NCBI GenBank assembly: GCA_013152945.1
Contig: JAADFL010000193.1
Coordinates: 1,991-65,990 of the forward strand
Direction: 5' to 3'
Length of the DNA stretch: 64,000 nucleotides
From: Deltaproteobacteria bacterium
Lineage (GTDB): Bacteria; Myxococcota_A; JAADFL01
Shown here piece by piece: positions 17,372-60,651 of the stretch. Positions within the stretch are counted from its first letter, which is position 1, and each line of letters begins with the position of its first letter. The notes below the pieces were generated by a model. It made no database searches and was not told the origin of the DNA. It saw nothing but the letters and a program-made list of their open reading frames with translations. The position numbers and the translations under genes are program-made.

Positions 17372-19927
17372 TTGTCGATTTGGAACAAAATATTTTCTTC
17401 ATCGCATCCAGGTGAAGTCCATGAACACGGCATCCGTTACCGTCTGGAACGCTTCCAGGAGATTGTCCGGCGCAACAACCGGGTGCTGGAACGGATAGCC
17501 GATGCAAGTGAAAAGCTGGGTGGAGAATACATATTCGACGTCCAATACCTCCATGATTTCGTAGACAGACTGGGAGACGATGTCAGGGCCATCGCCCTTG
17601 CTCTTAATGAACTGACAGGCAACCGGTATCAGGAATTACTGCGCATAGTCAGTTCAATCAACGACAACCTGCGTGCCGTCCTCGAATCCAGGACCGTAGC
17701 CCCTGAATCCGAAATCGTGTTGAGACTCGACCGGATTGGAACCGAACATGCCGACGTCACAGGATCCAAAATGGCCCGGCTCGGAGAAATCCAGCGAATA
17801 CTCGGGCTCACCACTATGCCGGGCGTGGTGGTAACCGCGTCCGCATGCACCCAATTCTTGGAATCCGCCGGGCTGGAACCCTTGATAACGGCTATGCGGA
17901 ATACGAACGGTGAAGAACTCTTCGAACTTGCCGGGGAACTCCGCAATCAAATAATACACGCCGATGTCCAAAAATGGCTGCAAAAGAAGCTCAGGCGCTC
18001 GGTCAGGGCAATATCAAAACGCTTCCATACTCAATACCTCTCGGTTAGAAGCAGCGCAATAGGCGAAGATGAAGACCTTGTATTCGCAGGTCAGTACCTC
18101 ACCGAACTCGGGGTACGGCCGGAGGAGATATGTGATGCATATCGAAAGGTCGTTGCCAGTCTTTATGACAGGCATGTCATGGAATACCGTATCCGGCACA
18201 GCCTTCCACCCGCCGACGGATTGATGGCGGTAGGCATCCAGGTGCTTCTCCAGCCGAAATGTTCAGGCATAATCTATACATTGGATCCTACCAATCCTGA
18301 CAGGGATGTTATCCTGGTTTCCTCAGGTTTCAGCCTCGGCGCATCCGTAGTGGATGGCAGTGCGCCGGTGGATCGTTTTATTATCGACCGCAATCCACCT
18401 CATCATATACTGGAAAGTCATATTGCCGAGAAGACCACCGAATGTGTAATCAACGAGTCGGGTGGAACTATTGTCAGGGAGATCGAACCCGAACGCCGCA
18501 AGATTCCAACGCTCGAACCGGGACAACTTCAGAACCTGTGCAGGCAGGCCTTGAAAATAGAACGCCACATGCGGTGCGCCCAGGATATCGAGTGGGCCAT
18601 GGATGAAAAGGGGCGAATATTCATACTCCAGTCCCGCCAGTTGAAAGTAACCCACATCGAGCAAAACAACTTGAATATCATGGGTCCTATTTCTCACGAG
18701 GTGTTGCTCAAGGATTTGGGAGAAGTCGCTTGTAGAGGGGTGGGATTCGGCCGGGTATGGATCGCGGATAACAGGGAAGAGAACGCGGAAGACAATGAAA
18801 TGCCGGACCATGCTGTTCTCGTATCCAGGACCGCTTCGCCGAAGCTTGCAGCCCTTCTGCCACGAGCATCCGCCCTTTTGACCGATTATGGGACCACGAC
18901 GGGTCACCTTGCCACTGTTGCCCGGGAGTACCGCATTCCTGCAGTCGTGGATACCGGGGCAGCCTCCCGGATACTCGAAGACGGCCGGATGGTCACTGTG
19001 GACACGGAAGAAAACATGGTCTATTCGGGGAAGGTACAAGAGCTGATAAAAAAACAACTGCTGCAGGCATCGTCGTACGAAGACAAGAAAGAATTCCGCA
19101 TGTTGCGCAGGCTGCTGCGAAACATTGCGATCCTGAACTTGAGTGACCCGACCTCGCCGGATTTCAAGGCCCAGAACTGCCGCACCTACCACGACATCAT
19201 CCGCTTCGCCCATGAAATAGCAGTCCAGGAGTTGGCCACGGGAAACTGGCTCCGTTCGAATCGCCGGTGTAATGCTGTTTTCCGCCTTGATATAGACATC
19301 CCGATAGACCTGGTAATCATCGATCTCGGAGGCGGTATAAAGGCCACCCCGAGAAAAACAGTGGTTACATCTCAGCATATCCTGAGCCGTCCCCTGACCG
19401 CCCTGCTGGCCGGAATGACATTGGAAGGTGTTTGGAAAACCGAACCGGCCGACATGGACCTGGGAGGTTTCATGTCCAGCGCGACTCGAACGACTGCTTT
19501 AACAGGGCCCGAGGCGGCGCGCCCTGAACAGAACGTGGCCATTGTTTCAAACGACTACCTGAACATGAGTCTCAAGCTCGGATACCACTTTAACCTCGTC
19601 GATTGCCTGATGAGCGACAACGCGGAAGACAACTTCATATATTTCCGCTTCGCCGGGGGTGTAACCGAACTGTTACGCCGTTCCCGAAGGGCATTGCTTC
19701 TCAGAGAAATCCTGGAGCACTATGATTTCGTAGTCGAGGGCAAGGGAGACCTGGTAATTGCACGATTGAAGTTCCTGGACTTGACACGGATGCAAAAGAA
19801 ACTTGAAATGATAGGCCGATTGATCGGCTTTACCCGGCAACTCGATATTCACCTGCGCAGTGACGACCTGGTAAGGCATTATATACAAGAGTTCCTTGCC
19901 GGCTCTGAAATGCCGTCAAGCAGCTAA
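17372..19927 (+). CDS. PEP-synthase/pyruvate-phosphate-dikinase-like enzyme: PPDK_N ATP-grasp domain and phosphohistidine swivel domain, with a non-canonical C-terminal domain.
   Basis: 851-aa ORF. SVRSSAIGEDEDLVFAGQ...MAVGIQVLLQPKCSGIIYTLDP matches the PPDK_N nucleotide-binding domain. TDYGTTTGHLATVAREYRIPAVVDTG matches the PEP-utilising mobile His domain (catalytic His present). The last 290 aa do not look like the PEP/pyruvate TIM barrel. Confidence 0.7.
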   Translation: MSIWNKIFSSSHPGEVHEHGIRYRLERFQEIVRRNNRVLERIADASEKLGGEYIFDVQYLHDFVDRLGDDVRAIALALNELTGNRYQELLRIVSSINDNLRAVLESRTVAPESEIVLRLDRIGTEHADVTGSKMARLGEIQRILGLTTMPGVVVTASACTQFLESAGLEPLITAMRNTNGEELFELAGELRNQIIHADVQKWLQKKLRRSVRAISKRFHTQYLSVRSSAIGEDEDLVFAGQYLTELGVRPEEICDAYRKVVASLYDRHVMEYRIRHSLPPADGLMAVGIQVLLQPKCSGIIYTLDPTNPDRDVILVSSGFSLGASVVDGSAPVDRFIIDRNPPHHILESHIAEKTTECVINESGGTIVREIEPERRKIPTLEPGQLQNLCRQALKIERHMRCAQDIEWAMDEKGRIFILQSRQLKVTHIEQNNLNIMGPISHEVLLKDLGEVACRGVGFGRVWIADNREENAEDNEMPDHAVLVSRTASPKLAALLPRASALLTDYGTTTGHLATVAREYRIPAVVDTGAASRILEDGRMVTVDTEENMVYSGKVQELIKKQLLQASSYEDKKEFRMLRRLLRNIAILNLSDPTSPDFKAQNCRTYHDIIRFAHEIAVQELATGNWLRSNRRCNAVFRLDIDIPIDLVIIDLGGGIKATPRKTVVTSQHILSRPLTALLAGMTLEGVWKTEPADMDLGGFMSSATRTTALTGPEAARPEQNVAIVSNDYLNMSLKLGYHFNLVDCLMSDNAEDNFIYFRFAGGVTELLRRSRRALLLREILEHYDFVVEGKGDLVIARLKFLDLTRMQKKLEMIGRLIGFTRQLDIHLRSDDLVRHYIQEFLAGSEMPSSS

Positions 19928-19957
19928 GGACCTGTTAAGGTGGTGTTGGAGGAAAAA

Positions 19958-20347
19958 ATGGGAAAATCCGGCAGAGTCCTTGTCCTGGACGATGAAAAGA
20001 TAGTATGCGACAGGTTGACCGAGCATTTTTCCAAAAAGGGACTTGAAGTGGAAGCGTTCACGGATAGTCAACAGGCGATAGACCGTATTGCGAGTCAGGA
20101 CTTTGACGTGATCATTACCGACTTGAAGATGAAAGGCCCGACCGGTATGGATGTAGTCCACTTCGTGCGCCGAAACCGGCCGGGCGCCGAGCTGATAGTA
20201 ATAACCGGATACGCCTCGATCGATACTGCCAGAGAGGCCGAGTACTCGGGTGTGTACAAATTCATCACCAAGCCTTTCAAGATGAACAACCTGGCCAAAT
20301 CAGTGATGAAAGCCGTACACAAGGCACAAACCAGAAAAGGCAGGTAA
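19958..20347 (+). CDS. Stand-alone response-regulator receiver (CheY-like) protein.
   Basis: The track ORF starts at GTG 19940. The ATG at 19958 has a GGAGG RBS 6 nt upstream. VLVLDDE, phospho-acceptor in VIITDLKM, T/S in ITGYAS, K in ITKPF. No output domain. Confidence 0.8.
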   Translation: MGKSGRVLVLDDEKIVCDRLTEHFSKKGLEVEAFTDSQQAIDRIASQDFDVIITDLKMKGPTGMDVVHFVRRNRPGAELIVITGYASIDTAREAEYSGVYKFITKPFKMNNLAKSVMKAVHKAQTRKGR

Positions 20348-34796: not shown

Positions 34797-36272
34797 ATGG
34801 GGCATGGATGCCTTGGAGAAAGGTGCTCTATTAGGCCGGAGGACTCGCACTTGAAAAAGACCAGAGGTCACAAACTTGGTGATATCCTGCGGGAAGGGGA
34901 AGTAGCAGATTCTTCCGGCATTGAAAAAGGCCTAAAGTATCAAAGAAAAACCGGCGAAAGAATTGCCAGTTCCCTTCTCTTCCTTGGCCTTGCATCCGAA
35001 AGAGACCTTGCCGAAAGTTTGGGAACACAAAAAGGGGTGCCTGCGGTCGTATTGGGAGAATCCGCGATAGAACTCGAGGTCATTGCAACAATACCTTACA
35101 AGGTGTCCAAGCAACAGCTCATACTTCCCCTGAAAATAACAGAGGCTAATATTTTCCTGGCAATGGCCGATCCCGACGATTTAAAAACCGCGGCGGAAGT
35201 TGAATTTGTATCCGGTAAGAAAGTTATACCTCACGTAGCCTTGGCCGGACAATTGAGACGCTTCATAGAATCTGCAAGAAAAAAGAGAACCTCGAACCCG
35301 AAAGCCAAGTTGTTGATTGGAGAAACATTACTCGAACAAGGTTCTCCCGGTAATGCCTCTTTCGGCCAGAAATTGGCCGTTATTAAGCCCACAACCGGGT
35401 GGGAACCGGCTCTGGATGAGGCGTGGGATAACATGGAGCCAATGGATGCAGGCTTACGCGAGCCCATGGATATATTACCCAGCGAGAGTGAGGCAAAAAA
35501 AAACAGTCCTTCGCCCAAGCATATTCTGATTGTAGATGATGATCCCGATATACTTGAAATGATGTCCAAATACATCGAACACAAAGGCTTCAAAGTTGAG
35601 AAGGCGGAAAACGGAACCAAGGCGCTTGCAAAGATAAGAAACAATAAACCCGGATTATTGATACTGGATGCCATGCTTCCGGGCATTCATGGATTCGAGA
35701 TTTGTCGTAAAATCAAGGACAGCAAGCGCTACTCGTCAGTGCCGGTCATCATGATAAGCGCGGTGTACAAAGGTTGGCGGTACAGCGAAGACGTGCGACA
35801 AACCTACGGGGCCGACGACTACCTGGAAAAGCCCTTCCCCTTGGAAAAATTGTATGGCAAACTAAAACAATTCTTGAGTACCAAGAAAGAGATGGTTTCA
35901 GATGAGTCTCTTGTCAACGATGCGGAGACCGCACTGAAGGAGGGACTGCAAGCCCAGGGGAGAGGTGAAATTGATACAGCGATAGCCAAATTCAAAGAAG
36001 GAATTGCAATAGATCCCATGTCGCATCAACTTCATTTCCACCTTGCGAATCTTCTTGCGGCGCAAGAAAACTATTTCATGGCAATTGGTGAATTGGAAAG
36101 GGCTGTTGAATTGGAACCCAGGTTTTTTACTGCGTTGAAAGGTTTGGCGGTATTATATCAGAAAAAAGGATTGCTCAGGAAATCAATCGAGATGTGGGAG
36201 CGAGCGTTATACACGGCGCCTGATGACAAGACCAGGGATAAGATCAGGACTCATCTCTTCCAATTGTTATAG
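34797..36272 (+). CDS. MshEN (T2SSE_N-type c-di-GMP-binding) domain, then REC receiver, then TPR.
   Basis: 491-aa ORF. Two tandem 24-residue MshEN motifs are read directly: KLGDILREGEVADSSGIEKGLKYQ and RIASSLLFLGLASERDLAESLGTQ (LGxxLxxxGxVxxxxIxxxLxxQ). The receiver (ILIVDDDPD, LLILDAML, MISAV, YLEKPF) is intact. The C-terminus has 3-4 TPRs. Confidence 0.75.
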   Translation: MGHGCLGERCSIRPEDSHLKKTRGHKLGDILREGEVADSSGIEKGLKYQRKTGERIASSLLFLGLASERDLAESLGTQKGVPAVVLGESAIELEVIATIPYKVSKQQLILPLKITEANIFLAMADPDDLKTAAEVEFVSGKKVIPHVALAGQLRRFIESARKKRTSNPKAKLLIGETLLEQGSPGNASFGQKLAVIKPTTGWEPALDEAWDNMEPMDAGLREPMDILPSESEAKKNSPSPKHILIVDDDPDILEMMSKYIEHKGFKVEKAENGTKALAKIRNNKPGLLILDAMLPGIHGFEICRKIKDSKRYSSVPVIMISAVYKGWRYSEDVRQTYGADDYLEKPFPLEKLYGKLKQFLSTKKEMVSDESLVNDAETALKEGLQAQGRGEIDTAIAKFKEGIAIDPMSHQLHFHLANLLAAQENYFMAIGELERAVELEPRFFTALKGLAVLYQKKGLLRKSIEMWERALYTAPDDKTRDKIRTHLFQLL

Positions 36273-36325
36273 GCTCCGGTTGAAACTTGAGGCTCTGATG
36301 TGCAACTTTAGACGACGAGGTACCG

Positions 36326-38011
36326 ATGCGTTTTATCTGTGAAAAGTGCCATACCAAGTATTCAATCGCCGATGAAAAGGTTCGGGGCAAGGTTCTCAAG
36401 ATACGTTGCAAGAAATGTCACAATATTATCGTGGTTCGCGAACCCGCTTCCAAGGCTAAATCAGCATTAAAGAAAAAAGATCAACTTGACGAAGAATTCG
36501 AACGGGCCTTTGACCGATTGACCGGAAAATCAGGGATCGCCTCCCGGCCGGAGTCAAAGGCAGCAAAGCAACAGTTGCGCGTTGCGCCCGACCTCAAAGA
36601 TGACGTTGATGCAGGAATAGAAGGTGAAGAGTGGTTCGCCATCCTCAGGGGCCGACAAATCGGCCCTATGAACCTTGATGAAGTGAAGCAGGCAATCAAA
36701 GACGAGCGAATATCGCACGGCACGTACCTATGGCGGGATGGGATGGCCGACTGGGTCCGAGCGGCCCGTTGCGATGAAATCAAGCCTCTCTTACCCGATA
36801 GACGCATACCCAAGGCCCAAAAACCGTCTGAAGTAAAATCCAAGCCTGAAAAGGAAAAAGCCGGGGAACCGGAAGAAGACAAAACCAGGATAGCATCTCC
36901 CGAGTTGGCTGCCGAACTTGCGCGGAAATTGGAAAGCCAGGCCCAGCCGGCCGAATCTCAGCCGGAAGAAACTCCAAGACATGGGGAGCCCGAAGTTTCG
37001 GATGAAAAGGCTGTCGAGCAAGAAGAAGTCGCTGACCGGATACAAGACCAAAAAGAGGAAATACCCGAGAGAAGAGCCAGCGAGGAACCTGGAATACCCC
37101 CGCCTATGCCCGATGAAGATGAAGAAATACTCATCGCACCGGCCATTACGGGCAAACTCATAACCCTCAAGGCAGCCATTGCAATGAGCATAGCCTCTGC
37201 CGTAATTGCCACAGTGGCTACGGCTCTCATAATCGAATTAACAAGGCCCAGGCCCCGGAATACTTCATCTAATGAAAATGCTCAACGGGTGACAAAGGTA
37301 AGCAAACGAAAAAAGATTATCCTGACGCCCGAGCTGCTTGCCCTCAAGAGTAAGCTGTTCGGTCAAGATGGTTCAAGAAGGAGCAGGAGGGGCAGGAGAT
37401 CCGGCAGCCGCCCCCAGAAAAAAACAGGCCACAATTTATCAATATCCAGTCCCACCATGGGTGATTCCAACGAAAAACCAAGTGCTGACCTTGCTGCGAC
37501 TTTCAAGAATGCCGGCATGGATCTCGACCAGGCAAGGGGTTCCAGGGGCACCGGCACTGCAACAGGAGGTGTGGCCATGGCTGCTTCGACCGCCGGTTCC
37601 CCGGAAGACGGCTTGGCTGATTTATCCAGGAAGCGGAGATCCGACGACACAGGCTCGGATGGCTTGGACCTCGGCTCTCGCCGGAAAAGGACCTCTCTTC
37701 GAGGGATGAACACCGCAGGCTTGCCCGAGGGACTACCCCCTGAAACGGTGGCATCCCACTTCCAGGGAATGTGGATAGAAACATGCTACAACAGGGCTTT
37801 AAAGAGAGATCCCTCCATGAAGGGAAAAATGATAGTCGAATTCGAGATACGAAATGACGGGAGGGTATATTCAGTCAGGATATCACCTTCCACTTTTTTG
37901 GGAACCTTCCTGGCAAAGTGCTTCAGCCGGGAAATAAAGAAGATTAGATTTCCGATGTTCAGGGGAGACCCGATTCCCATTGAATACCCGTTCCTCCTCT
38001 CCGCACATTAG
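36326..38011 (+). CDS. GltJ/AgmX-like protein: N-terminal MJ0042-type zinc ribbon, GYF_2 domain, charged/Pro-rich linker, single TM, C-terminal AgmX/PglI-type periplasmic domain.
   Basis: 561-aa ORF. CEKCHTKY...CKKCHN zinc ribbon. GEEWFAILRGRQIGPMNLDEVKQAIKDERISHGTYLWRDGMADW is a GYF_2/DUF4339 signature. TM helix AAIAMSIASAVIATVATALIIEL. This architecture matches Myxococcus GltJ (AgmX). Confidence 0.65.
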   Translation: MRFICEKCHTKYSIADEKVRGKVLKIRCKKCHNIIVVREPASKAKSALKKKDQLDEEFERAFDRLTGKSGIASRPESKAAKQQLRVAPDLKDDVDAGIEGEEWFAILRGRQIGPMNLDEVKQAIKDERISHGTYLWRDGMADWVRAARCDEIKPLLPDRRIPKAQKPSEVKSKPEKEKAGEPEEDKTRIASPELAAELARKLESQAQPAESQPEETPRHGEPEVSDEKAVEQEEVADRIQDQKEEIPERRASEEPGIPPPMPDEDEEILIAPAITGKLITLKAAIAMSIASAVIATVATALIIELTRPRPRNTSSNENAQRVTKVSKRKKIILTPELLALKSKLFGQDGSRRSRRGRRSGSRPQKKTGHNLSISSPTMGDSNEKPSADLAATFKNAGMDLDQARGSRGTGTATGGVAMAASTAGSPEDGLADLSRKRRSDDTGSDGLDLGSRRKRTSLRGMNTAGLPEGLPPETVASHFQGMWIETCYNRALKRDPSMKGKMIVEFEIRNDGRVYSVRISPSTFLGTFLAKCFSREIKKIRFPMFRGDPIPIEYPFLLSAH

Positions 38012-38055
38012 TACGGAGCAGGGTTCGGTTAAAATTTGAACGGAGGTCGAGGTAC

Positions 38056-41000
38056 ATGGATCACGAAAAGGCTATAGCTAACTACTGGAACATACTTGAA
38101 GCGGAACCGGCGAATCGTGAGGCGTTCGCTTCCCTTGAGAAGCTGTTGTTCAAACTGGGGCGATGGGAACAACTCATCTCCCTGTATGAAAAAACAGCCG
38201 GGGCCGTAGGCGGCCCAAAGGGCGCCCCCTTGATCCTGAAGGCCGGAATGATTTGGAACGCCAAGCTCAAGAGGCGGGAAAAGGCGGTCGAATGTTATAA
38301 GAAGACGCTGGAATTGGATCCGGACAATCTCTCGGCAATGGCTCACCTGAAGGAACATTATGCCGCTACAAAGCAGTGGAATGAATACGTAGGACTGCTG
38401 CGCGAGGAAGCCAAACAGGCGGAAAGCCCTGAAGAAAAGGGGGATTTGCTGTTCAGCATAGGCACTACTTACAGAGACAAGCTGGGAGAGCCCGGCAAGG
38501 CGATGAGTGCCTTCCAGGAGGCATTCAAGACTGATCCGAAGTGCACCAAGGCCATTAAGGCGGGAATGGAGATATATAAAAATCTCGGCCGCTGGAACAT
38601 GGTGGTCAAATTGTTGAACATCCAACTTCGCGTGCTGAAAGATGACCAGGAAAAGGCGGATGTTTATATGGAGATGGCTGAAATATATGCATCAAGGATG
38701 AGCCAAACCAATGATGCGATAGAATGCTATCAAAAGGTCCTGGAGCTGGCGCCCGGAAACATGAAGGCCTTGGAGGCAATGGGAAATTTGTACGCTTCCG
38801 GAGGAGCTGCCGCAGCTTTGGAGGGGACGGAGGCAACAGAGCCGACTTCTGTAACCCAGGCGCCTGGAGCTGCGGAAACTGCAGCCCATTACATATCCCT
38901 TGCGGAAATACAGATGCAGGAGCCCCCAAACCTTGAACAGGCCAGGGAACTCTGTGAAAAAGCTCTTGCAATCGAGCCCGGCAACAAGATGGCCGTCGAA
39001 ATACTCGAAGAAACTTTCCGCAAAGAAAAACGTTGGAACGATTTGGTTTTGTTTCTTGAAAAACAGGTCGATCTCACGCCGGATACCGATCGCAAGCTCG
39101 ACTTCCTTTCAAACCTGATAATCATTGCAGCCAGGGAAATGAAACGACCCAAGAAGGCAAGGGGATATATTGAACAGGCCATGGCGCTGGGCGCCGCAAA
39201 GGAAACATTATTCAGTCCTGTGCTGGAGGTGTATGAACGTTCGGGACGATTCACAGAATACCTGGACCTACTTAGTTTAAAGGTGCAATATTCCGAGGAT
39301 GTCGCAGAGAAAGCCGGGATACTCCTGGAGATGGGTGACCTATGGCGGGAACAGCTCAAGAATGAAGAAAAGGCCAATGAATTCTATCTACAAGTATTAG
39401 AAATCAATCCGGAAAATGAGCGTGCCCAAGAACTGCATGAACAATACTTGAGAGCAAGGGGAGATTGGGATGCCCTGATCGATGTCCTGTGCAAAAAAGC
39501 AGAAACAGCCGAAAGCGATGAAGAAAAGGCTTCACATTATGCCGAGGCCGCCAAGCTATTGACAACGGCCGAGGATTACCAGTACGCACCGGAGATAGCC
39601 TTGCCGAGGGCAATTGAATTTTGGGAAAAAGTCCTGGACCTGGATCCTTCAAACAAGGAAGCGCGTGTATCCCTGACAGACCTGTACAGGACGACCGGAA
39701 ATTATGAGAAATTCCTTGCTGTTCTTGAAAACAATATCGAGCTCGCAGAAACCGATGAGGATAAGATAGCTTCTTTGCGCGAAATTGCTGAAATCTGTTT
39801 CCAGGTCGTGGGCGATCACCAAAGAGCAATAGAGACTTACTCCAAGCTACTCGATATTCAGCCACATGACCCGGAAGCACTGGATGCAATGGCTCAATAC
39901 TACCGTGAAGCAGGTGAGTTCGAGGACTTGGCCCAGGTCCTCGATAGACGCAGAGCATCAATAAATGAGCCGGCCGAACTTTTGGCCTTGAATGAAGAGT
40001 TGGCATACATCTTCGTCCAACGGCTTGGTGACACTGAAAAGGCAATCGAGGCGTACAAGGAAATTCTTAAGCTCGACCCGGAAAACCTTGGCGCCTTGGG
40101 AGCCCTGGAAAAACTGTATTCAAGCAAAAATGATTGGCGGGGACTCTTCGAAGTATTCGCCAAGCAACGCGATCTTGCACGAGAGCCCGGCAGAAGGGCG
40201 GAAATATCAGCCAGGGCGGCAAGAATAGCCACAGAACATCCCGAAGAAACCGGTGCTGACTCGGATGCCATAACAGCCCTGTGGACAGAGGTCTTGGCGG
40301 TGAGGCCGGATGACAAGGATGCGCTTGCCGCTCTTGCCGATATATACCGGGAAGCCGGTGCGTGGGAAGAGTTCGTGGCCGACTTGATAAGCCTTGCCGG
40401 CACAACGGAGAAACCAGAGGAAAGAGCGAAAATAAGGCTCGCAGCAGCTGATGCAGCAAACGAAAAATTGGGAGACCCGGTCAAGGCACGCGAGTTGTAT
40501 AGACTCGTTCTCCAGGACAATCCTGCTGAAAAGAAAGCAATCGAAACTCTCCAAAGCCTTTCAGAGGCCGATGAGGACTGGGAAGGACTGGCAGAGGTTC
40601 TCGAAATGAAGGTATCCACCTCAGAGGAGGACGATTTTATCAAGCTTAACATGGAGCTTGCCGGTCTGTATGAAAACAAGCTGAATAAAACGGATGATGC
40701 CATAGGCGCTCTCAACAGGGTCCTGGACCTGGACCCGGGAAACCAGGGCGCGGTTGTCGAGTTGTCCCGTCTTCTTCAGGACTCGGAGCGCTGGGATGAA
40801 CTCACCGAGGTCCTGGATAAGCGACTGGACATGACCTCACAGATGGATGAACGCCTGGATATTCTGCGGGAACTGGCCGGAGTCAGGGAAAGAGAACTGG
40901 CCGATTACGGCGGAGCGGCATCCGCGTACGAACAAATATTGGAGATCGACCCCTCGGATCATGAAGCGACCGAGGCATTGGAGAGAATTTACCTGGAAGG

Positions 41001-44000
41001 CGGGGAATGGGAACAACTGATAAGGCTGTTCAACCGGAAGATTGAAGCAGCGGAAGATCCGGAAGATAAGAGTACATTACTTCTGCAAATGGCCGATATA
41101 TACGAGAACAAGATGGTCCGCAAAGACCTGGCTTTCGAAACTTACGCAAGGTTGTTCGAATTAGGCGTTTCCGACAGTGACACCTTGAGCGAATTGGAAA
41201 GGTTGGCCGGCGAGTTGAACCAGTGGGATCTGGCCAGGGTCCTGGAAATCGAGGCAGATCGTACTCAAGACAAAGAGAGCCAAGTCAAGCTGCTCTTCAG
41301 AGTGGCCGGGTTGGCAGTCGATAAACTGGAAAGTCCTGACAAGGCAATAGCAACGTACAAGAAAATACTTGAAATATCCCCGGCGGACCGGGAAGCCCAT
41401 AAGGCCGTTGTCCATCTGCTGAAGAAGGGGGGAGATTACACAGAATTGGCGCAAGCCCTCGACACCGAGGCGGATGCCCTGGAAGACGATCCGAATGAAC
41501 GCGCCGAAGTGCTGTTATCTCTGGCCTCTGTCTACGAAGAAAACCTGGATGATCTGGAAAGAGCGGTTCAAACCTATCGAAGGGTAATGGATATACAGCC
41601 TGGAAACAGGGATGCCCTTTCCGCGCTGTCCAGGATATACAACCAGGAAAAACGATGGCAAGAACTGGCTGAAGTCCTGGAGCAGGAAGTCGCTGCAACA
41701 AATGACATGGAACGCAAGGTTTCTCTTCATTACCAGATTGCAGGGTTGTGGGAAAGGGAACTCAACCAGCCGGAGAAATCAGTAGACAGTTACTTGGCAA
41801 TCCTGGATATCGACTCCTCGAACCTTCCTGCCCTAAAATCCCTGGAAAAGCTATACAACTCTCTCGAACGCTGGAAGGATCTGGCCCTCGTATACGTCAG
41901 GGAGGCCAACCTGTTCGATGAAGCCGACATCAAGATAGTCATGCTGTCAAAGGCTGCCAAAATTCTCGAGCACAAGGTATCGGACAGGCAAGAGGCTATT
42001 GAAATATTGAACAATATACTCGAGATCGATCCTGACAACCTGCCGGCCATAAGGGGTTTACAGAGGCTTTACTTCGATGAAGAGGACTGGGAACGACTTA
42101 TCGAGGTTTACGAACGCGAAATCCCACTCGAAGGAGATACGTCCAGGCAGGTGGCACTGTACCAGGCTATCGGCGAAATCTTTGAAATCAAGCTCGAACG
42201 GGCGGAAAAGGCTGTTGAAAGTTATGAAAAGATACTCGAACTCGCGGGAGAGCACAGACAAGCATTACAGGCGTTAAGCCGCATTTATGCCAAGCTCGAA
42301 GAATGGGAACGATGCGTACAGACCACAACGAGAGAGGCTGCACTGGCACCTGATACAAACACAGGTGCAGAGCTCAATATCAAGGTCGCCGAGATCTTCA
42401 GAGACAAGCTCGACGCCCCGGACAGGGCTCTCGAGCACTTCCAGCGAGCATTGGAACTCAATCCAACCGCATCAAAGGCCCTGGACGGAGCAGCGAATAT
42501 CCTCAGGAAGCAGCAACGATGGCAAGAACTCTACCAGCTAAAGAAAATAGAAGAAAAAACTTTACCCAGGGGAGAGGAACATGCGGCTGTCCTGTGCGAA
42601 ATAGCCAAGCTTGGAATGGAAAAACTGGGCATGGAGGACGAGGCGATAACCTGCTACAAGGACGCATTGGAATCGGTTACCGACTATCTTCCTGCAATGC
42701 TTCCCCTGGCCGAAATCTATTTTAACAGACAAAACTGGAAGGAAACGGCACCTCTGCTCGAAAGAATCGTCGAAGCGGAAAAGGACAGAACCGAACCATC
42801 CACACTCGCATCACTCAAGTACCGCCAAGGCTGGGCACTGGACCAACTCAACGATGGAGCCGAAGCCCGCAAGTGCTACGAGGACGCTATCTCCATGGCG
42901 CCCGACCTCCTTGAAGCGAGATCCTCGTTGGTCGAATTACTCCTGCGTGAAGATGATAAAGCCGCGGCTCTCCCTCACATGGAAGCAATAGCAAATTTAA
43001 AAATGGACTCTGTGGCTCCGGAAGAGGCGGCGGGGCTTTACTACAGGGTCGGAGCAATGGCGCAGGAGCTTGGAGAATCCGACAAGGCTATAGAGGCATT
43101 TGAAAAGGCCATTGACATCGACCGATCTCACCTGCCTTCCCTTGAAGCCTTGGCACAAGCTTATGAATCATCCGAAAGATGGGAAGATGCGGTCAAGGTT
43201 TCGGATGATCTGCTTCAAATAACCAAGGAAGCTGGACTACGGTCCAGGTTGCTCACGCGGGTGGGCACGATGCTCATGGACCGTCTGTCCGATCCGGCAA
43301 GTGCAGTTGCCAAGTTGGCAGAGGCGGCGGAGCTGGCACCTGAAGACATGGAGGTCCAGACGAAACTCCTCGAGGCGTACAAGACGGCAGGTATGTGGCA
43401 AGAAGCCGTGGAATACGTGTCCAGGCTCATTGAAGCGGAAGAAGATCCCAGGAGAACGGGAATACTGGAAGTATACCTGGGAGAACTCTACCGTGATGGA
43501 CTGGGCGACCAGGACAGGGCTGTCGAAGCATATTGTGAAGCATTGCGAAAGGATCCGGGCAACCAAGGTGCTCAACAAGCCCTTTTTACCTATCACGAAC
43601 AAGATGGCTCCTGGGAAAAATTGGCGGAACGTTTCAGGTCGATAGCCGATTCAATACCAGAGGAACGCATCGAGACAAAGGCCGACCTGGTAAAAGCCCT
43701 TGGAAAGCTTTACATAGAAAAACTTCAAGACCGCAACAAGGCAATCGAGACCCTGCGGGAGGCCGCGGAACTGGACAGGGAAGACATTGAAATTCACAAG
43801 GCCCTGGTAGAACTGTTTGGAGATGATGAAAACTATAAGGCCGAAGCAATCGACAGCCACAAGGCCCTGCTGCGCGGAGATCCTTTACGGGTTGACACCT
43901 ACCATCTCCTGGCCAAGACCTACCAGGAACGCGGGCAGGCGGACAAGGCATTCTGCGTATGTGCTGTTCTCAACTTCCTTAAGGAAACCACACCCGAGGA

Positions 44001-44889
44001 AAAGAAGTTCTATGACAAGCATAAGCTAAAGGTCAAAGAAGACTTCGAATCTCCTTTGGATGAAGATTTTCGGGAACACGTGCTCACGCACCCGGACGAG
44101 ATTGAACCTTTGTCCACAATCCTAACTACCTTGTCCCAGGTGGCTTCCAAGGTTTTTCCTCCAGACCTTGCATCTTATGGGATCGGCTCCGAGGAACCTC
44201 CTGACCGGGATGTTCCTCCCCAGTTGCTGAAGAACTTCAACTACGTAAGAAAAACTCTGAGGTTACCCGATATTGGGTTATATTCGAGGGATAGGCTGGC
44301 AAGCCTGGTAGCGGTTGAAACAACAGAGCCTCCGTCGATTATCGTTGACTATGCAAAGCTCAAGGGCAGGTTCAACAAGGAACAACGTTTTATCCTTGGA
44401 AGAGCCGTGGACTCCGCCCGTCCATCGCACATACTGGCCGCCAAACTGGGGTTGAACGGGCTCAAAGACGTGGCCCGCGCAACAGTGAAGATATTGTTTC
44501 CCGAGTACGGCCTGGCAGGAGATTATGACACTGACGAGGAACGGGAAACCATCATGGCCAGAACATTGACAAGACGACTGCGCCGTTCCCTCCTTGAACC
44601 GGTCCGGGAATACGTTGTACGACAGGACGAGATAGAATGGGACCGGTACTTACAGGGTGTCATGCATTCTTCCAACAGGGCGGGTTTCATTCTTTGCGGC
44701 GACATAACCACGGCAGCCGGGGTCATCATCCGGGAATCTCCGGAACTCAAGAGAGTGTTGCTGAAGCAAAGGGAAGATTTCGAAAAGGTCTTTAGTCAAT
44801 CCCCGCAACTCAGGGAACTCGTGCTTTTCGCTGTTTCAGACGACTACTTCGAACTGAGGGAAAAGGCCGGAATAGCCATCAAGGGATAG
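38056..44889 (+). CDS. Giant TPR-repeat protein (2277 aa) with a non-TPR C-terminal domain of about 290 aa, a candidate GltI/AgmK-like gliding-motility scaffold.
   Basis: Single uninterrupted ORF. About 28 copies of a unit of about 72 residues (...AIE.Y..IL..DP.N..AL..L..LY...E.W.EL..VLE...). No signal peptide or TM, so cytoplasmic. In M. xanthus a very large TPR protein (AgmK/GltI) is encoded beside agmX/gltJ. Followed by the hairpin at 44942-44966. Confidence 0.7.
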   Translation: MDHEKAIANYWNILEAEPANREAFASLEKLLFKLGRWEQLISLYEKTAGAVGGPKGAPLILKAGMIWNAKLKRREKAVECYKKTLELDPDNLSAMAHLKEHYAATKQWNEYVGLLREEAKQAESPEEKGDLLFSIGTTYRDKLGEPGKAMSAFQEAFKTDPKCTKAIKAGMEIYKNLGRWNMVVKLLNIQLRVLKDDQEKADVYMEMAEIYASRMSQTNDAIECYQKVLELAPGNMKALEAMGNLYASGGAAAALEGTEATEPTSVTQAPGAAETAAHYISLAEIQMQEPPNLEQARELCEKALAIEPGNKMAVEILEETFRKEKRWNDLVLFLEKQVDLTPDTDRKLDFLSNLIIIAAREMKRPKKARGYIEQAMALGAAKETLFSPVLEVYERSGRFTEYLDLLSLKVQYSEDVAEKAGILLEMGDLWREQLKNEEKANEFYLQVLEINPENERAQELHEQYLRARGDWDALIDVLCKKAETAESDEEKASHYAEAAKLLTTAEDYQYAPEIALPRAIEFWEKVLDLDPSNKEARVSLTDLYRTTGNYEKFLAVLENNIELAETDEDKIASLREIAEICFQVVGDHQRAIETYSKLLDIQPHDPEALDAMAQYYREAGEFEDLAQVLDRRRASINEPAELLALNEELAYIFVQRLGDTEKAIEAYKEILKLDPENLGALGALEKLYSSKNDWRGLFEVFAKQRDLAREPGRRAEISARAARIATEHPEETGADSDAITALWTEVLAVRPDDKDALAALADIYREAGAWEEFVADLISLAGTTEKPEERAKIRLAAADAANEKLGDPVKARELYRLVLQDNPAEKKAIETLQSLSEADEDWEGLAEVLEMKVSTSEEDDFIKLNMELAGLYENKLNKTDDAIGALNRVLDLDPGNQGAVVELSRLLQDSERWDELTEVLDKRLDMTSQMDERLDILRELAGVRERELADYGGAASAYEQILEIDPSDHEATEALERIYLEGGEWEQLIRLFNRKIEAAEDPEDKSTLLLQMADIYENKMVRKDLAFETYARLFELGVSDSDTLSELERLAGELNQWDLARVLEIEADRTQDKESQVKLLFRVAGLAVDKLESPDKAIATYKKILEISPADREAHKAVVHLLKKGGDYTELAQALDTEADALEDDPNERAEVLLSLASVYEENLDDLERAVQTYRRVMDIQPGNRDALSALSRIYNQEKRWQELAEVLEQEVAATNDMERKVSLHYQIAGLWERELNQPEKSVDSYLAILDIDSSNLPALKSLEKLYNSLERWKDLALVYVREANLFDEADIKIVMLSKAAKILEHKVSDRQEAIEILNNILEIDPDNLPAIRGLQRLYFDEEDWERLIEVYEREIPLEGDTSRQVALYQAIGEIFEIKLERAEKAVESYEKILELAGEHRQALQALSRIYAKLEEWERCVQTTTREAALAPDTNTGAELNIKVAEIFRDKLDAPDRALEHFQRALELNPTASKALDGAANILRKQQRWQELYQLKKIEEKTLPRGEEHAAVLCEIAKLGMEKLGMEDEAITCYKDALESVTDYLPAMLPLAEIYFNRQNWKETAPLLERIVEAEKDRTEPSTLASLKYRQGWALDQLNDGAEARKCYEDAISMAPDLLEARSSLVELLLREDDKAAALPHMEAIANLKMDSVAPEEAAGLYYRVGAMAQELGESDKAIEAFEKAIDIDRSHLPSLEALAQAYESSERWEDAVKVSDDLLQITKEAGLRSRLLTRVGTMLMDRLSDPASAVAKLAEAAELAPEDMEVQTKLLEAYKTAGMWQEAVEYVSRLIEAEEDPRRTGILEVYLGELYRDGLGDQDRAVEAYCEALRKDPGNQGAQQALFTYHEQDGSWEKLAERFRSIADSIPEERIETKADLVKALGKLYIEKLQDRNKAIETLREAAELDREDIEIHKALVELFGDDENYKAEAIDSHKALLRGDPLRVDTYHLLAKTYQERGQADKAFCVCAVLNFLKETTPEEKKFYDKHKLKVKEDFESPLDEDFREHVLTHPDEIEPLSTILTTLSQVASKVFPPDLASYGIGSEEPPDRDVPPQLLKNFNYVRKTLRLPDIGLYSRDRLASLVAVETTEPPSIIVDYAKLKGRFNKEQRFILGRAVDSARPSHILAAKLGLNGLKDVARATVKILFPEYGLAGDYDTDEERETIMARTLTRRLRRSLLEPVREYVVRQDEIEWDRYLQGVMHSSNRAGFILCGDITTAAGVIIRESPELKRVLLKQREDFEKVFSQSPQLRELVLFAVSDDYFELREKAGIAIKG

Positions 44890-44967: not shown

Positions 44968-45612
44968 CTAGTCTTCTCTTCTCTTCCTTAACAAAGTCAG
45001 CCCAATCAACAGGAGCAACCCGGCGACTGGCCCTGCCACATTTTCTCCGGGTGTCCCGCATCCGCATGTTTTCGGCTCCCCGGCAGGAGTGTTCTGATTG
45101 TCTCCGCCCTCTTGCCACCTCTTGGGATCCAATGGGTAACTATCCTCGGAATCAGGATGCCCGTCATTGTCGTCACCAGGATCCTTGACGTCATCCTGGT
45201 AATCATTGTCATGGTCGAAACTGAAATCCTCACCTCCCGGTCTCTTGTCACATCGAGCCTGTGAGCAATCGATGGGAACACAGTATCCATCGACACATTA
45301 CTTGCCGTTCGAGCACTCGCCGAAAATACAGGGTTCGGCGCAACGGCAAGCTGCACAAACAGAACCGCCGGGGCACAAGTCACTCTCGTCCACATCACCG
45401 TTACAATCGTTGTCCATGCCATCACATTGTTCGGGCTTGCCATCGTAGTAAACCGTGACATCCTGCATGGACGGGACATTTTTACCGGCGTCGTTCGAGG
45501 TCGACTCTACCTGGATCTCCAGCCATGGATTGTCCGGAACATTCAGCATGGACCCTGGTGTGACATAATGTATCCAGTGTATCTTACACGGTCTGACGCC
45601 TGGAAAGTGCAT
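44968..45612 (-). pseudogene. MYXO-CTERM-tailed Cys-rich protein with a MopE-like metal-binding motif, interrupted by an in-frame TAA (complement of 45298-45300). It lacks an N-terminal signal peptide.
   Basis: The track ORF 45298..45612 ends ...CDGMDNDCNGDVDE...CIFGECSNGK*. Manual read-through of the same frame continues CVDGYCVPIDCSQARCDK...DHDNDYQDDVKDPGDDNDGHPDSEDS...TCGCGTPGENVAGPVAGLLLLIGLTLLRKRRED*. This is a CGC tripeptide, a hydrophobic helix and a basic cluster, the TIGR03901-type MYXO-CTERM pattern. Confidence 0.6.
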
Positions 45613-57297: not shown

Positions 57298-60200
57298 CTA
57301 CTTGATCTTCAACTTGAAGCCGTCCAGTTCCACCCCGGCGTTTTTCTGGTCCTCCTGCAACAATTTTTCAGGATTCTCATACAACTGCATCGGCGTAGTC
57401 GGGTACAGTCTCACATCATTCTTGTCGCCGATGGCAAATCTCTCCCCATCCGGTGAAAAACGTGCAGCGATCACATTCATCCTGGCCCTGACCACCAACA
57501 ATGGCCAGCCGGTCAAAACATCCCACAAGATAACGCGCCCGTCATCGCTGGTCGAAAGCAATTCTTTTCCATCCGGAGAGAATTCAAGGTTGTTTACCCA
57601 CTGCCGGTGACCCTTGAGCCTCCTTAAAATGGTCCCCTTCTTGAAATCCCACAATATGATGGTTCTATCCCTGCCGGAGGTCGCAAGGTACTTGCCGTCC
57701 CGGGATACCGCTACACCCGACACCCAATCCGTATGACCCTTGAACTCTTTTAAAACCCTGTCCTCTTTGATGCCCCACATTACGGCCTTGTCGTCAGAGC
57801 CCGAGATGACCAGGCGTTTCGAATCCGGTGTGAAATCGACCTGCCAAACCCTTACGCCCTTGCGTTCCATGGTATTTAAAATACGGCCTGTCTCGGCATC
57901 TCTCAGAATAATCTTACCGCTCAAGTCACTCGTAACCAGGTACCTGCCGTCCGAAGAGTACTCCACCCAGAACACGGTCTCATCATGGCCCTTCAACGAT
58001 GCAGTAACAGTACCATTCTTGATGTCGATCAGATGGGTCAACCTGTCGAAACCGGATGTTGCGGCATGCCGGCCGTCGGGTGACACTGCAATACAGGTAA
58101 GCATTTTCTCGCTCACCCGTAGCACATGTTCCACCTTACCTGTATATACATCCCAGATTCGGACCGTCCCATCAAAACCTGCACCCACGATCTTCTTACC
58201 ATCCGGCGTAAAATCCAGACCCCAAACCTGGTCCTTGAACCCGGTGAAGACCGTTTTATCCCGCCCATGCTTCACCCGCCAAATCTTCACGCTCTTGTCT
58301 TCGCTAACCGTGGCCAACCTGGAGACATCAGGAGAAAAGTACGCTCCCCATACACTGCCGTTGTGACCTGCTATTACCTGTAACAAACTTCCTGTTTCCG
58401 CCTGCCATATGCCGACCTTCCTGTCCATGCCGGCGGAAACCAGGAACCGGCCATCACTCGAAAACCTGACTCCGAACACAATGTCCTTGTGTTTCTTGAA
58501 GTGCCAGGCAGGTTTCATCGACCCGATATCGAACACCCAGACACTTCCGTCACCGCAAGCAACGGCCAGAAGTTTTTGGTCCCTCGAAACATCCACGCTC
58601 CATATCGAACCTTTCGGGCCTTTCAATGAAGCGTCTACTTTCCCTGAGGCCATATCCCAAAACCTGATTGTCCTGTCCCTGCCCGCAGAGATTAATATCT
58701 TTCCATTGTGCAGGAAAATAACATCATAAATAGGAACCGAAGAAAAATTCTCATTCAAGACTTCCGAGCCGTCCGAAATTTTCCAGGCCCTTACAAAGCC
58801 GTCATCACAAGCTGCTGCAAGGATACGGCCGTCATTCGAAAAGGCCAGGTTCCATATCCTCTTGCTCTTCTTTACCAATTCACGTGCTATTTTCTTCTTT
58901 CTTGCATCCCACAACACCACCCGGCCGGTCGAGCTTCCTGTTGCAATGTACTTGCCGTCAGGAGAAAACCTGACAGCCCAAATAACACCTGACGGCTCGT
59001 CCAGTGCCTCGGCTTTGTGCAGTCCATCCATCTTTTCAGTGTCGAACAGGAGCAGTTTCCCATCGTAACTTCCAGCCGCAAACAACCTGCCGTCAGGAGA
59101 AAATGAACCTGTTGACGGTGAATATACCGTATCGAAAGATGTCTGAAATCCTTCCACGGGCCGGGTCTTTGATTCCATTTCCCAAAACGCCGCCTCTGCC
59201 AGAAGCTTCATGCTCTCAGGCCGCCTATGAATGAACCTCCTCGAAAAATAAGGCCCTACGGCGTTCGCAGGATTCCTCAAGAGAGCGGCAGAGGCAAAGA
59301 CAGCCGCATCCAGGAACCTCTTTTCCCGGCTCAATGTGCTCGCTTTTTCATTCAACGCCTCTGCAATGTGGAAGTTTGCCTCGCGGTTGGCTTCAGCTTC
59401 GGATTTATACGCTATTGTTATGAAAACAATAGCGAGCAACAAGCTCACGAGAGCCGCGCCGGATGACAACATGAGCACCTTGTGTCTCCCGGCAAAACGC
59501 TTGATTATTTCCGGTTTACTGTAATGGTAGGCCATTACACGCGCGCCTTGCTGGAAAGCTTGAACATCCCGGGCCAACCCGCCGGCCGAGGCATACCGCT
59601 TGTTCCGTTCCCTTTGAAGGGCCTTATGAGCGATAGCCGCGAGTTCTTCCGGAGCCTCGGGGACAATATGGTTGACTGGTATTATCCTGCCCTTCCTCAC
59701 CTTTTCCAGAACCTCCGAAGGGCTGTTGCCTGAGAAAGGCCTCAAACCTGTCAACAGCTCGTACAGGACGGCTCCCAAGCTCCATACGTCCGACCGCTCG
59801 TCCACCTTGTCCACGAGACCCCGGGCCTGCTCCGGGCTCATGTACGCTGGAGTTCCGATAGTAGTACCATCAACTGTTCCGGTAGCATCCATGCCCTCCA
59901 TAGAGGTGATGTCCCTGCTTAGTTTCACCCCCCTTAAGTCCTTTTCTCCCTTGACCTTGGCCACGCCCCAATCGAGCAACATGGTTTCCCCGAATTCTCC
60001 GACCATGACGTTCGCGGGTTTGATGTCCCTATGAATCACCCCCCGGTCATGTGCATAGGCGACCGCATTACACAAATCGATAAAATGGTCCAGGTATACG
60101 AGCCGTTCCCCAAGCGTCTTACATGACTTCAGCACCTCGGAAAAGGTGCGGCCCTTGACCATTTTCATCGTGTAGAACAAAGTTCCGTCTTTGCGGATAC

Positions 60201-60651
60201 CAAGGTCGTGGACAGGAACGATATTGGGATGCTCGAGCTGCGCGGTTACCTTTGCCTCCCTTAAAAACCTGGCTATTGTCTCGGATGTCCCACTCATCCT
60301 GGAGGCGGAATCGAGAGGCGAATCGCTGTCGATGGACAGGTACTTCAAAGCTACCTTCCTGCCAAGGTTGTTGTCGAACAATTCAACGACCCTTCCGAGG
60401 GCGCCACGACCGAGTTCATCGGCTTCATCCAACGTCAGAGATTCTGCCGAGGCACCGGATTCGCTTGAATATCTTTCACCTGAGTCCACGGTGATGCTCT
60501 TTCCTTGTTCACCGGCCAAGGACAGCAGGCCCGGATGATTTTGGTCGGTAGGATCAGCCAATCTTCCCTCCAATAATTCAATATTGAAGCTGCATCTCCA
60601 AAGCGCTATCAAACGTAACATTAACATGCTAGAAAAGTAAGCGTGTTTCAA
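57298..60651 (-). CDS. Ser/Thr protein kinase, single TM, then about 14 WD40 repeats.
   Basis: 1117-aa ORF. Hanks kinase motifs GRGALGRV, VALKYL, HRDIKPANVMV, DWGVAKV, GTPAYMSPEQ. TM helix VLMLSSGAALVSLLLAIVFITIAY. Recurrent WD40 signatures (...SPDG..LA...D.T..LWD...G). The exact start is uncertain. Confidence 0.85.
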   Translation of the reverse strand: MKHAYFSSMLMLRLIALWRCSFNIELLEGRLADPTDQNHPGLLSLAGEQGKSITVDSGERYSSESGASAESLTLDEADELGRGALGRVVELFDNNLGRKVALKYLSIDSDSPLDSASRMSGTSETIARFLREAKVTAQLEHPNIVPVHDLGIRKDGTLFYTMKMVKGRTFSEVLKSCKTLGERLVYLDHFIDLCNAVAYAHDRGVIHRDIKPANVMVGEFGETMLLDWGVAKVKGEKDLRGVKLSRDITSMEGMDATGTVDGTTIGTPAYMSPEQARGLVDKVDERSDVWSLGAVLYELLTGLRPFSGNSPSEVLEKVRKGRIIPVNHIVPEAPEELAAIAHKALQRERNKRYASAGGLARDVQAFQQGARVMAYHYSKPEIIKRFAGRHKVLMLSSGAALVSLLLAIVFITIAYKSEAEANREANFHIAEALNEKASTLSREKRFLDAAVFASAALLRNPANAVGPYFSRRFIHRRPESMKLLAEAAFWEMESKTRPVEGFQTSFDTVYSPSTGSFSPDGRLFAAGSYDGKLLLFDTEKMDGLHKAEALDEPSGVIWAVRFSPDGKYIATGSSTGRVVLWDARKKKIARELVKKSKRIWNLAFSNDGRILAAACDDGFVRAWKISDGSEVLNENFSSVPIYDVIFLHNGKILISAGRDRTIRFWDMASGKVDASLKGPKGSIWSVDVSRDQKLLAVACGDGSVWVFDIGSMKPAWHFKKHKDIVFGVRFSSDGRFLVSAGMDRKVGIWQAETGSLLQVIAGHNGSVWGAYFSPDVSRLATVSEDKSVKIWRVKHGRDKTVFTGFKDQVWGLDFTPDGKKIVGAGFDGTVRIWDVYTGKVEHVLRVSEKMLTCIAVSPDGRHAATSGFDRLTHLIDIKNGTVTASLKGHDETVFWVEYSSDGRYLVTSDLSGKIILRDAETGRILNTMERKGVRVWQVDFTPDSKRLVISGSDDKAVMWGIKEDRVLKEFKGHTDWVSGVAVSRDGKYLATSGRDRTIILWDFKKGTILRRLKGHRQWVNNLEFSPDGKELLSTSDDGRVILWDVLTGWPLLVVRARMNVIAARFSPDGERFAIGDKNDVRLYPTTPMQLYENPEKLLQEDQKNAGVELDGFKLKIK

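Follow-up and report, generated by a model that had tools for sequence, protein, structure and literature searches.

A conserved MshEN-receiver-TPR gene beside a GltJ-like gene in Myxococcota, joined in one lineage by a gene for a half-size GltI-like scaffold

Here, we analyzed a stretch of 64,000 nucleotides (nt) from a 66-kb contig of a 'Deltaproteobacteria bacterium' metagenome-assembled genome (MAG), in the following called the window, with a focus on three adjacent genes named g1, g2, and g3. The product of g1 combines an MshEN domain, a phospho-receiver domain (REC), and tetratricopeptide repeats (TPRs), g2 encodes a homologue of the gliding protein GltJ, and g3 encodes a half-size homologue of GltI. 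A gene of the g1 type is nearly always found together with a GltJ-like gene, while GltJ-like genes are also found where g1 is missing. This conserved pair of an MshEN-REC-TPR gene and a GltJ-like gene, which is joined by a GltI-like gene in the lineage of the window, is apparently undescribed. As the best explanation, to which we give an even chance, the three genes would form an operon-like unit for the platform of a Glt-type machine with the g1 protein as its dedicated adaptor.

The three genes are arranged as follows:

34797-36272, + strand: g1, response regulator with the domain order MshEN, linker, REC, TPR; longest open reading frame (ORF) of 491 amino acids (aa), likely gene 34851-36272 with 473 aa
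36326-38011, + strand: g2, GltJ/AgmX-like protein of 561 aa with zinc ribbon (ZnR), GYF domain, transmembrane segment, and AgmX/PglI domain
38056-44889, + strand: g3, GltI/AgmK-like TPR scaffold of 2277 aa, assigned by TPR families and by BLASTP to a verified GltI

Their deposited products are NOZ87804.1 to NOZ87806.1, of which NOZ87805.1 (g2) is annotated as 'AgmX/PglI C-terminal domain-containing protein', and the G+C content of the window is about 51%. An earlier note on this DNA, made from the sequence alone, had given the same coordinates, strand, and common direction; only its gaps of 54 and 45 nt have to be corrected to 53 nt between g1 and g2 and 44 nt between g2 and g3. A consensus scan detected no terminator-like site in either gap, and the tight, co-directional arrangement may hint at an operon-like unit. 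Promoter and terminator scans of the locus yielded nothing that exceeded the shuffled expectation, which includes the following site behind g3:

45048-45064, + strand: terminator-like hairpin about 160 nt past the g3 stop codon; a consensus match only, with the number of such sites found not above that in shuffled sequences

Relatives of g1 are numerous. The protein database contained 869 of them, and a scan with one genome per species detected relatives in 450 GTDB species genomes. The MshEN-REC-TPR domain set was present in all 120 relatives listed of these 869, and the named ones among those listed came from Myxococcota, Sandaracinus or 'Deltaproteobacteria'. Gene order was compared in the best 80 genome loci among the 450 species, which were labelled Polyangiales, Polyangiaceae, Sandaracinaceae, Myxococcales or Myxococcota. 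In 77 of the 80 loci, tblastn with the N-terminal region of g2 detected a same-strand gene that follows g1. In about 76 loci (~95%) this partner starts 5-235 nt past g1, i.e. within about 250 nt, with a median gap of a few tens of nt, and in one further locus (L034) it starts at 520 nt. The exceptions are L070, where the contig ends, L023, where the partner has a divergent N-terminus with the C-terminal domain still present downstream of g1, and L018. At 9520-11500 of L018, the g1 homologue is followed by AT-rich, stop-dense DNA without a GltJ-like gene, and this may be a chimeric contig. Nearly all complete partners, 56 in number, have one transmembrane segment and an AgmX/PglI domain at the very C-terminus, as judged by an iterated hidden Markov model and a hydropathy scan.

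The closest relative of the locus, on a metagenome contig from JGI (L084), carries the same triple with products of 487, 607, and 2285 aa and a g1 protein of 49% identity. A g3-type gene adjoins the pair only there and in the window, and all-against-all clustering showed that only g1 and g2 are common to these two contigs and the Polyangia loci. The earlier note had treated g1 as part of a module with both of its neighbors; the adjacency of g1 and the GltJ-like gene extends across the genome loci, and the complete triple is confined to the two contigs.

Further genes accompany the pair in part of the loci. Upstream of it, many Polyangia loci (L001 5378-9945, L003 5669-9765, and about 25-50 others) contain a gene for a sigma-54-type response regulator, and the same upstream blocks encode a biotin-lipoyl/BSH-like protein of about 163 aa and proteins of about 384 and 160 aa without family match. 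None of these four genes occurs in the window. Just downstream of the pair, about 13 loci (among them L001 13085-14173 and L003 13667-14722) have FliQ/FliR-like genes of an export apparatus (Bac_export_3, Bac_export_1). One g1-g2 locus (L056) lies in a MAG labelled Longimicrobiales (Gemmatimonadota), which is either a binning error or a horizontal transfer.

For g2, the following features were assigned:

36326-36448, + strand: zinc ribbon with Cys5, Cys8, Cys28, and Cys31; Zn_ribbon_4, 46.7 bits, residues 1-35
36596-36823, + strand: GYF domain, residues 91-166; GYF_2, 47.6 bits at residues 103-151
37154-37210, + strand: single predicted transmembrane segment, residues 277-295; Kyte-Doolittle window scan
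37760-38008, + strand: AgmX/PglI (TonB-C-like) C-terminal domain, residues 479-561; NF033768, 68.9 bits (cut-off 40) at residues 484-558

The top matches of g2 among PDB sequences are the ZnR (7zok, E value 1.2e-7) and the GYF domain (7z3c, E value 1.1e-6) of M. xanthus GltJ, and the cysteine positions 5, 8, 28, and 31 are identical to those reported for GltJ (Attia 2024). None of the best 120 homology matches of g2 bore 'GltJ' in its source name, and orthology was judged via a verified glt cluster of Anaeromyxobacter. In this cluster, the neighbors of a gene for a protein of 4095 aa (P0309) score above the NCBIfam equivalog cut-offs:

GltE: 279.6 bits, cut-off 225
GltG: 801 bits, cut-off 650
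CglE: 119.7 bits, cut-off 70
GltJ: 452.3 bits, cut-off 450

The g2 protein is collinear with this Anaeromyxobacter GltJ, with 31% identity over ZnR and GYF (E value 6e-20) and 29% identity in the C-terminal domain (E value 6e-9). Both the architecture and the direct alignment thus show g2 to be a GltJ homologue. It shares with GltJ (AgmX, MXAN_4862) the order of ZnR, linker, GYF, long linker, one transmembrane segment, and TonB-C-like domain, as well as the neighborhood of a GltI homologue. It differs in length (561 versus 594-674 aa), in the gene order, which is J then I at g2-g3 and I then J in Anaeromyxobacter, in its location outside any gltD-H cluster, and in the MshEN-REC-TPR gene in front of it, which is lacking next to Anaeromyxobacter gltJ. 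Just past the transmembrane segment of g2, at 37211-37420 of the window, the protein is strongly basic (RPRPRN...KRKK...RRSRRGRRSGSR).

The TPR matches of g3 extend from the N-terminus to about residue 1965 (Pfam), and the protein has no signal peptide. Behind the repeats follows a separate domain:

43933-44886, + strand: non-TPR C-terminal domain of g3, residues 1960-2277, about 315 aa, helical; no Pfam family matched

A search with this domain against 1.84 billion cluster representatives gave 1282 matches at E <= 1e-3. Among the matches listed, the domain sits nearly always at the extreme C-terminus, and complete proteins have either about 1300-2100 or about 3500-4185 aa. It is also carried by P0309 from Anaeromyxobacter sp. 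(E value 7e-27 by tblastn). Because the neighbors of P0309 exceed their equivalog cut-offs and its gene lies between gltH and gltJ, P0309 is the GltI of that Anaeromyxobacter. BLASTP aligned residues 2-2277 of g3 with residues 1870-4095 of P0309 at 27% identity over 2330 columns (E value 1e-172). By this alignment, g3 is a half-size homologue of GltI (AgmK, MXAN_4863): its entire sequence corresponds to the last ~2200 residues of GltI, the non-TPR helical domain included. GltI likewise lacks a signal peptide. The difference is in size, as GltI has about 3800-4130 aa in Myxococcus, Stigmatella, and Anaeromyxobacter. The two GltI homologues of Sorangium, sce2920 and sce2921, with 1774 and 2081 aa (Luciano et al. 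2011), fall into a size class comparable to g3.

Two of five sampled contexts of GltI-like genes, with the two Anaeromyxobacter loci counted once, contain genes for cyclic di-GMP (c-di-GMP) metabolism. In the verified Anaeromyxobacter cluster (L086/L087 6766-9844), genes for a phosphonate-binding-like protein and a HAMP-GGDEF-EAL protein are located between gltH/cglE and gltI, and the latter, a c-di-GMP turnover enzyme inside a gliding cluster, is encoded directly upstream of gltI. On a 7.3-Mb contig of a Deltaproteobacteria MAG, a GltI-like protein of 1775 aa is encoded by a stand-alone gene, with a REC-EAL gene (L088 8685-9887) ending 113 nt in front of it. At the two other GltI-like loci inspected, no c-di-GMP genes were present. 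As an aside, the genes in Anaeromyxobacter and L088 fit a c-di-GMP theme around the platform.

The domains of g1 are given below; residue numbers refer to the longest ORF of 491 aa.

34838-34853, + strand: Shine-Dalgarno-like GGAGGA (34838-34843) and probable start codon TTG (34851), spacing 7 nt, in frame
34869-35336, + strand: MshEN domain, residues 25-180, with a four-helix N-terminal and a GspE-N1-like C-terminal subdomain (Pfam, phmmer, AlphaFold2)
34872-35030, + strand: tandem nucleotide-binding motif region of 53 residues, with motif 1 K26-Q49, spacer R50-E54 (RKTGE), and motif 2 R55-Q78
35349-35507, + strand: disordered linker between MshEN and REC, residues 185-237, moderately Pro-rich (12% Pro), with a predicted local distance difference test score (pLDDT) below 50
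35517-35879, + strand: receiver (PF00072) with D247, D248, D291 (phospho-acceptor), S321, Y342, and K345
35901-36266, + strand: C-terminal module of three TPRs (TPR_2/TPR_1/TPR_11); AlphaFold2 helices at residues 369-490

The longest ORF opens with ATG at 34797. The true start is likely TTG 34851, since the NCBI product of 473 aa (NOZ87804.1) and the N-termini of relatives fit it. All three domain types exceed their Pfam cut-offs, with 52.2 bits (cut-off 23.1) at residues 80-163 for MshEN (PF05157), 91.1 bits at residues 243-356 for Response_reg (PF00072), and TPR_2, TPR_1, and TPR_11 matches for three repeats at residues 380-480. An AlphaFold2 model built with 22 family members had a mean pLDDT of 83.6 and three well-folded domains. 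MshEN helices are predicted at residues 27-33, 39-52, 56-62, and 68-79, followed by the alpha/beta subdomain (pLDDT >90), and the receiver spans residues 241-361. Foldseek superimposed the receiver on solved receivers with template modelling scores of about 0.9 and root mean square deviations of 1.4-2 Å; in the search of the whole model against the PDB, receivers dominated the matches and nothing was added on the MshEN part. D247, D248, D291, S321, and K345 are each kept in 77 of 81 family members. The linker is variable in the family (median 88 aa, 13% Pro), and the TPR module is the best-conserved part, in which the invariant columns concentrate. The g1 protein is probably a soluble orphan response regulator that acts as an adaptor sensing c-di-GMP and phosphorylation.

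With these results, most of the protein descriptions in the earlier note stand: the combination of MshEN, receiver, and TPRs in g1; a receiver intact in its acidic pair, acceptor Asp, Ser, aromatic switch residue, and Lys; the ZnR-GYF-transmembrane architecture of g2 with its AgmX/PglI domain, for which Pfam, NCBIfam, and PDB matches agree; the cytoplasmic TPR nature of the 2277-aa g3 protein; and the GltJ/GltI character of the g2-g3 pair. The suggested comparison of g2 with GltJ/AgmX family models had a divided outcome, as the C-terminal domain passes its model and GltJ is the best family, but the score falls below the GltJ equivalog cut-off.

A different picture emerged for the two MshEN motifs, which had been called canonical. 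In phmmer alignments, residues 25-160 of g1 match the MshEN domains of PilB (E value 2e-13), PilF, and MshE gap-free, and residues 25-130 align ungapped with residues 8-113 of Vibrio cholerae MshE (5HTL; E value 6.7e-10). Both 24-residue motifs and the 5-residue spacer are exactly in register with MshE and PilB, and the four-helix and N1-like subdomains are shared as well. Unlike these proteins, g1 carries the domain without fusion to a secretion ATPase. Motif 1 reads K26-L-G28...I42...L46...Q49, with Lys for Arg at position 1, R32 where a hydrophobic residue is expected, and E35 in place of the turn Gly ([GAS]). Motif 2 reads R55-I-A57...G64...L71...L75...Q78, in which A57 replaces the ligand-contacting Gly equivalent to G40 of MshE. 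Due to R32 and E35 in motif 1 and A57 in motif 2, neither motif fits the relaxed pattern that Wang et al. 2016 had used for searching. Of the Arg, Leu, Gly, and Gln positions whose loss would have spoken against the earlier reading, most Leu, Gly, and Gln are kept, and the changes are Arg to Lys and Gly to Ala.

This variant motif is common to the g1 family and not peculiar to the window. Among 81 members, motif 1 has Gln (62%), Lys (16%), Pro (14%), or Arg (6%) at position 1, Gly at position 3 in 95%, and Gln at position 24 in 78%. In motif 2, positions 1 and 2 are Arg and Leu in 91% each, position 3 is Ala in 83% and Gly in 11%, and the turn Gly (93%), Leu (95%), and the Gln at position 24 (91%) are strongly conserved. 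We take this conservation to mean that a ligand site, altered in its details, is probably under constraint.

The following mechanism is proposed. The three proteins would comprise the platform of a Glt-type envelope machine, i.e. its part in the cytoplasm and inner membrane, and an adaptor of its own that integrates signals. In this platform, g2 would be a GltJ-type bitopic switch with cytoplasmic ZnR and GYF domains, one transmembrane segment, and a TonB-C-like tail, and g3 would be the scaffold. The variant MshEN site of g1 would be occupied by c-di-GMP or a related dinucleotide, and D291 would be phosphorylated by some kinase. Occupancy and phosphorylation may alter the presentation of the TPR module and possibly of the linker. 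Either of them could contact the cytoplasmic ZnR-linker-GYF part of g2, the g3 scaffold, or both, and this contact would gate the assembly or activity of the complex. A role of the linker is suggested by analogy with AglZ, in which a proline-rich segment binds the GYF domain of GltJ. In a wider and more tentative form, g1 proteins would be dedicated partners of the GltJ switch across Polyangia and allied Myxococcota, which bind c-di-GMP, are phosphorylated on D291, dock on ZnR/GYF, and license or block the assembly of the gliding complex; we regard this as possible but doubtful.

As to the ligand, the kept motif residues make it somewhat probable that the MshEN domain of g1 binds c-di-GMP. The competing explanation is that the domain is binding-dead and serves for protein interaction only, like GspE N1 on GspL, so that phosphorylation alone would control g1 as an adaptor for the GltJ-like protein. 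The deviations of both motifs from the relaxed pattern would be expected in this case, and the bulky substitutions G11L and G40I abolish binding in MshE, MshE homologues with multiple changes, among them XpsE, no longer bind, and the Arg at motif 1 position 1 is replaced by Gln in most of the family. However, Gly to Ala is the smallest possible change, charge changes of R9 in MshE altered the affinity less than 5-fold, and M. xanthus PilB likewise has no Gly at motif 1 position 10. Moreover, strong conservation in the 81 sequences is seen for Gly28, the Leu triad, and the two Gln residues that form hydrogen bonds to ribose and phosphate, and this makes a binding-dead domain less likely. Overall, we consider this alternative less likely than not.

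As to the machine, we favor g2 as the GltJ of its lineage. The verified Anaeromyxobacter GltJ scores 140-148 bits (summed) against g1-linked partners, compared with 68-119 bits against unlinked ZnR-GYF proteins, and g2 has a GltI homologue as its neighbor. Furthermore, Table S2 of Luciano 2011 lists GltC-G and two GltI homologues but not GltJ for the Sorangium glt cluster and neither GltI nor GltJ for the Haliangium clusters; the GltJ function is thus left to a gene encoded elsewhere in these organisms. Several findings speak against the gliding interpretation and against c-di-GMP as its input. GltJ (NF033761) is the best NCBIfam family for g2 and for all ten partners tested, but at 109.2 bits and 69-133 bits, respectively, against a cut-off of 450. 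Family searches with the ORFs of the window found neither the aglRQS motor nor gltA-H/K, in agreement with the earlier note, so that no complete Agl-Glt apparatus is encoded there; mglA, mglB, and aglZ were not found in the window either. In all 80 loci, the 10 kb around the pair were free of matches to the N- or C-terminal part of g3. Genes of GltJ architecture occur without g1 upstream in Lujinxingia, at L089-L091, and in the verified Anaeromyxobacter cluster. The basic stretch behind the transmembrane segment of g2 contradicts the positive-inside rule for an N-in topology; it would be unexpected on the periplasmic side if the N-terminus is cytoplasmic like that of GltJ. ZnR-GYF proteins are widespread, and Attia 2024 proposed that they serve as versatile switches outside Agl-Glt as well. 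For g1, no cognate kinase was found, the position of A57 is critical in MshE and is Ala in most of the family, and the first position of motif 1 is mostly Gln. In addition, gliding of M. xanthus was normal after c-di-GMP had been raised or lowered and after all 24 GGDEF/EAL/HD-GYP genes had been deleted.

Some of these points would be better accommodated if g1 and g2 were a general transmembrane signaling module unrelated to gliding, with g3 as a scaffold that merely lies next to it in this lineage. ZnR-GYF-transmembrane-TonB-C-like proteins would then be envelope-to-cytoplasm switches and g1 their response regulator, for example in an Nfs-like non-motility machine related to Agl/Glt, in polysaccharide export, or in an envelope stress response. 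This reading draws on the wide distribution of ZnR-GYF proteins, on the lack of other glt/agl genes in the window, and on the low GltJ scores, and it also fits that GltI-like giants often stand alone and that the kept neighbors of the Polyangia pair are a sigma-54 regulator and small uncharacterized proteins instead of glt genes. We nevertheless judge it rather unlikely, as g2 adjoins a protein homologous to GltI over 2300 residues and GltI has to date been found in the gliding machine alone, as the verified GltJ resembles g1-linked partners more than unlinked ZnR-GYF proteins, and as a dispersed gltJ is expected in gliding Polyangia without gltJ in their listed glt clusters. Finally, the adjacency could be inherited gene order without functional coupling, with g1 as just one gene of a syntenic block that has been conserved. 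In favor of this, the loci all belong to a single phylum, and additional upstream genes are common to some of them; against it, the pair has been kept, and its flanks have not, across lineages whose g1 proteins are 35-41% identical to that of the window; the window and L084 share no other neighbor with the Polyangia loci, and same-strand genes with very short gaps are the rule. This explanation appears very improbable to us.

The combination of MshEN and REC as such is not new, since it was catalogued by Wang et al. 2016, who also count as many as 22 MshEN proteins for M. xanthus. Among the characterized examples, Bd2402 of Bdellovibrio (REC followed by MshEN_N) binds c-di-GMP with a dissociation constant of 0.4 µM (Wang et al. 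2016). Regulators of this type share with g1 a receiver and an MshEN-type site; g1 differs by the reversed order with a complete MshEN domain first, by the additional TPR output, and by the fixed location of its gene beside a GltJ-like gene. AglZ, which consists of REC, a proline-rich segment, and a coiled coil and is a partner of the GltJ GYF domain, resembles g1 in having a receiver and a disordered segment containing Pro. In contrast to AglZ, g1 has no coiled coil, its linker precedes REC, and there is no kinship beyond REC, so that we only infer this likeness. A literature search detected no paper joining MshEN with GltJ or Agl-Glt, or c-di-GMP with Agl-Glt, in line with the statement of the earlier note that an MshEN-receiver protein had not been described for such a locus; the supplementary neighborhood figures of Attia 2024 lay outside this search.

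Of the MshEN sequences that Wang et al. 2016 give for M. xanthus, none maps near MXAN_4862/4863, and the 'RLAS' signature in motif 2 of the g1 family is absent from the legible M. xanthus MshEN entries of their table. A short MshEN-domain protein is encoded immediately beside the gliding-motor gene aglR in two species, namely MXAN_6863 (296 aa) beside MXAN_6862 in M. xanthus and STAUR_0993 beside STAUR_0994 in Stigmatella. As an M. xanthus orthologue of g1, MXAN_6863 was rejected, as its gene has only 891 bp. A search with its approximate N-terminus, reconstructed by optical character recognition, matched only two fragments, and no mention of MXAN_6863 was found in the main text of the papers searched.

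Elsewhere in the window, a gene for a phosphoenolpyruvate-utilizing enzyme (851 aa) is immediately followed by one for a single-domain receiver (135 aa) at 17372-20347, and a HAMP histidine kinase is encoded a few kb away at 14153-15676. This kinase and the single-domain receiver are the sole two-component genes of the window besides g1. Co-directional genes at 49446-53007 encode an acyl carrier protein, a GcvT-like aminomethyltransferase, a thioesterase, FabG, and FabD, which looks like a specialized lipid or acyl pathway. On the - strand, 57298-60651 encodes a fusion protein of 1117 aa that combines a Ser/Thr kinase with a long WD40 beta-propeller array.

Nearly all that has been worked out on bacterial focal-adhesion gliding comes from M. 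xanthus, in which GltJ is controlled by MglA, MglB, and AglZ, with AglZ acting on its cytoplasmic face. The near-obligatory pair in most other Myxococcota suggests that second-messenger and two-component inputs act at the same control point, and M. xanthus appears to be without the regulatory input of g1. Thereby, a concrete regulator, a defined binding hypothesis, and an MshEN nucleotide-binding motif in a conserved variant form are gained. If the proposal is true, g1 would provide a second-messenger input to Agl-Glt that M. xanthus lacks, and this would explain the apparent irrelevance of c-di-GMP to gliding in M. xanthus.

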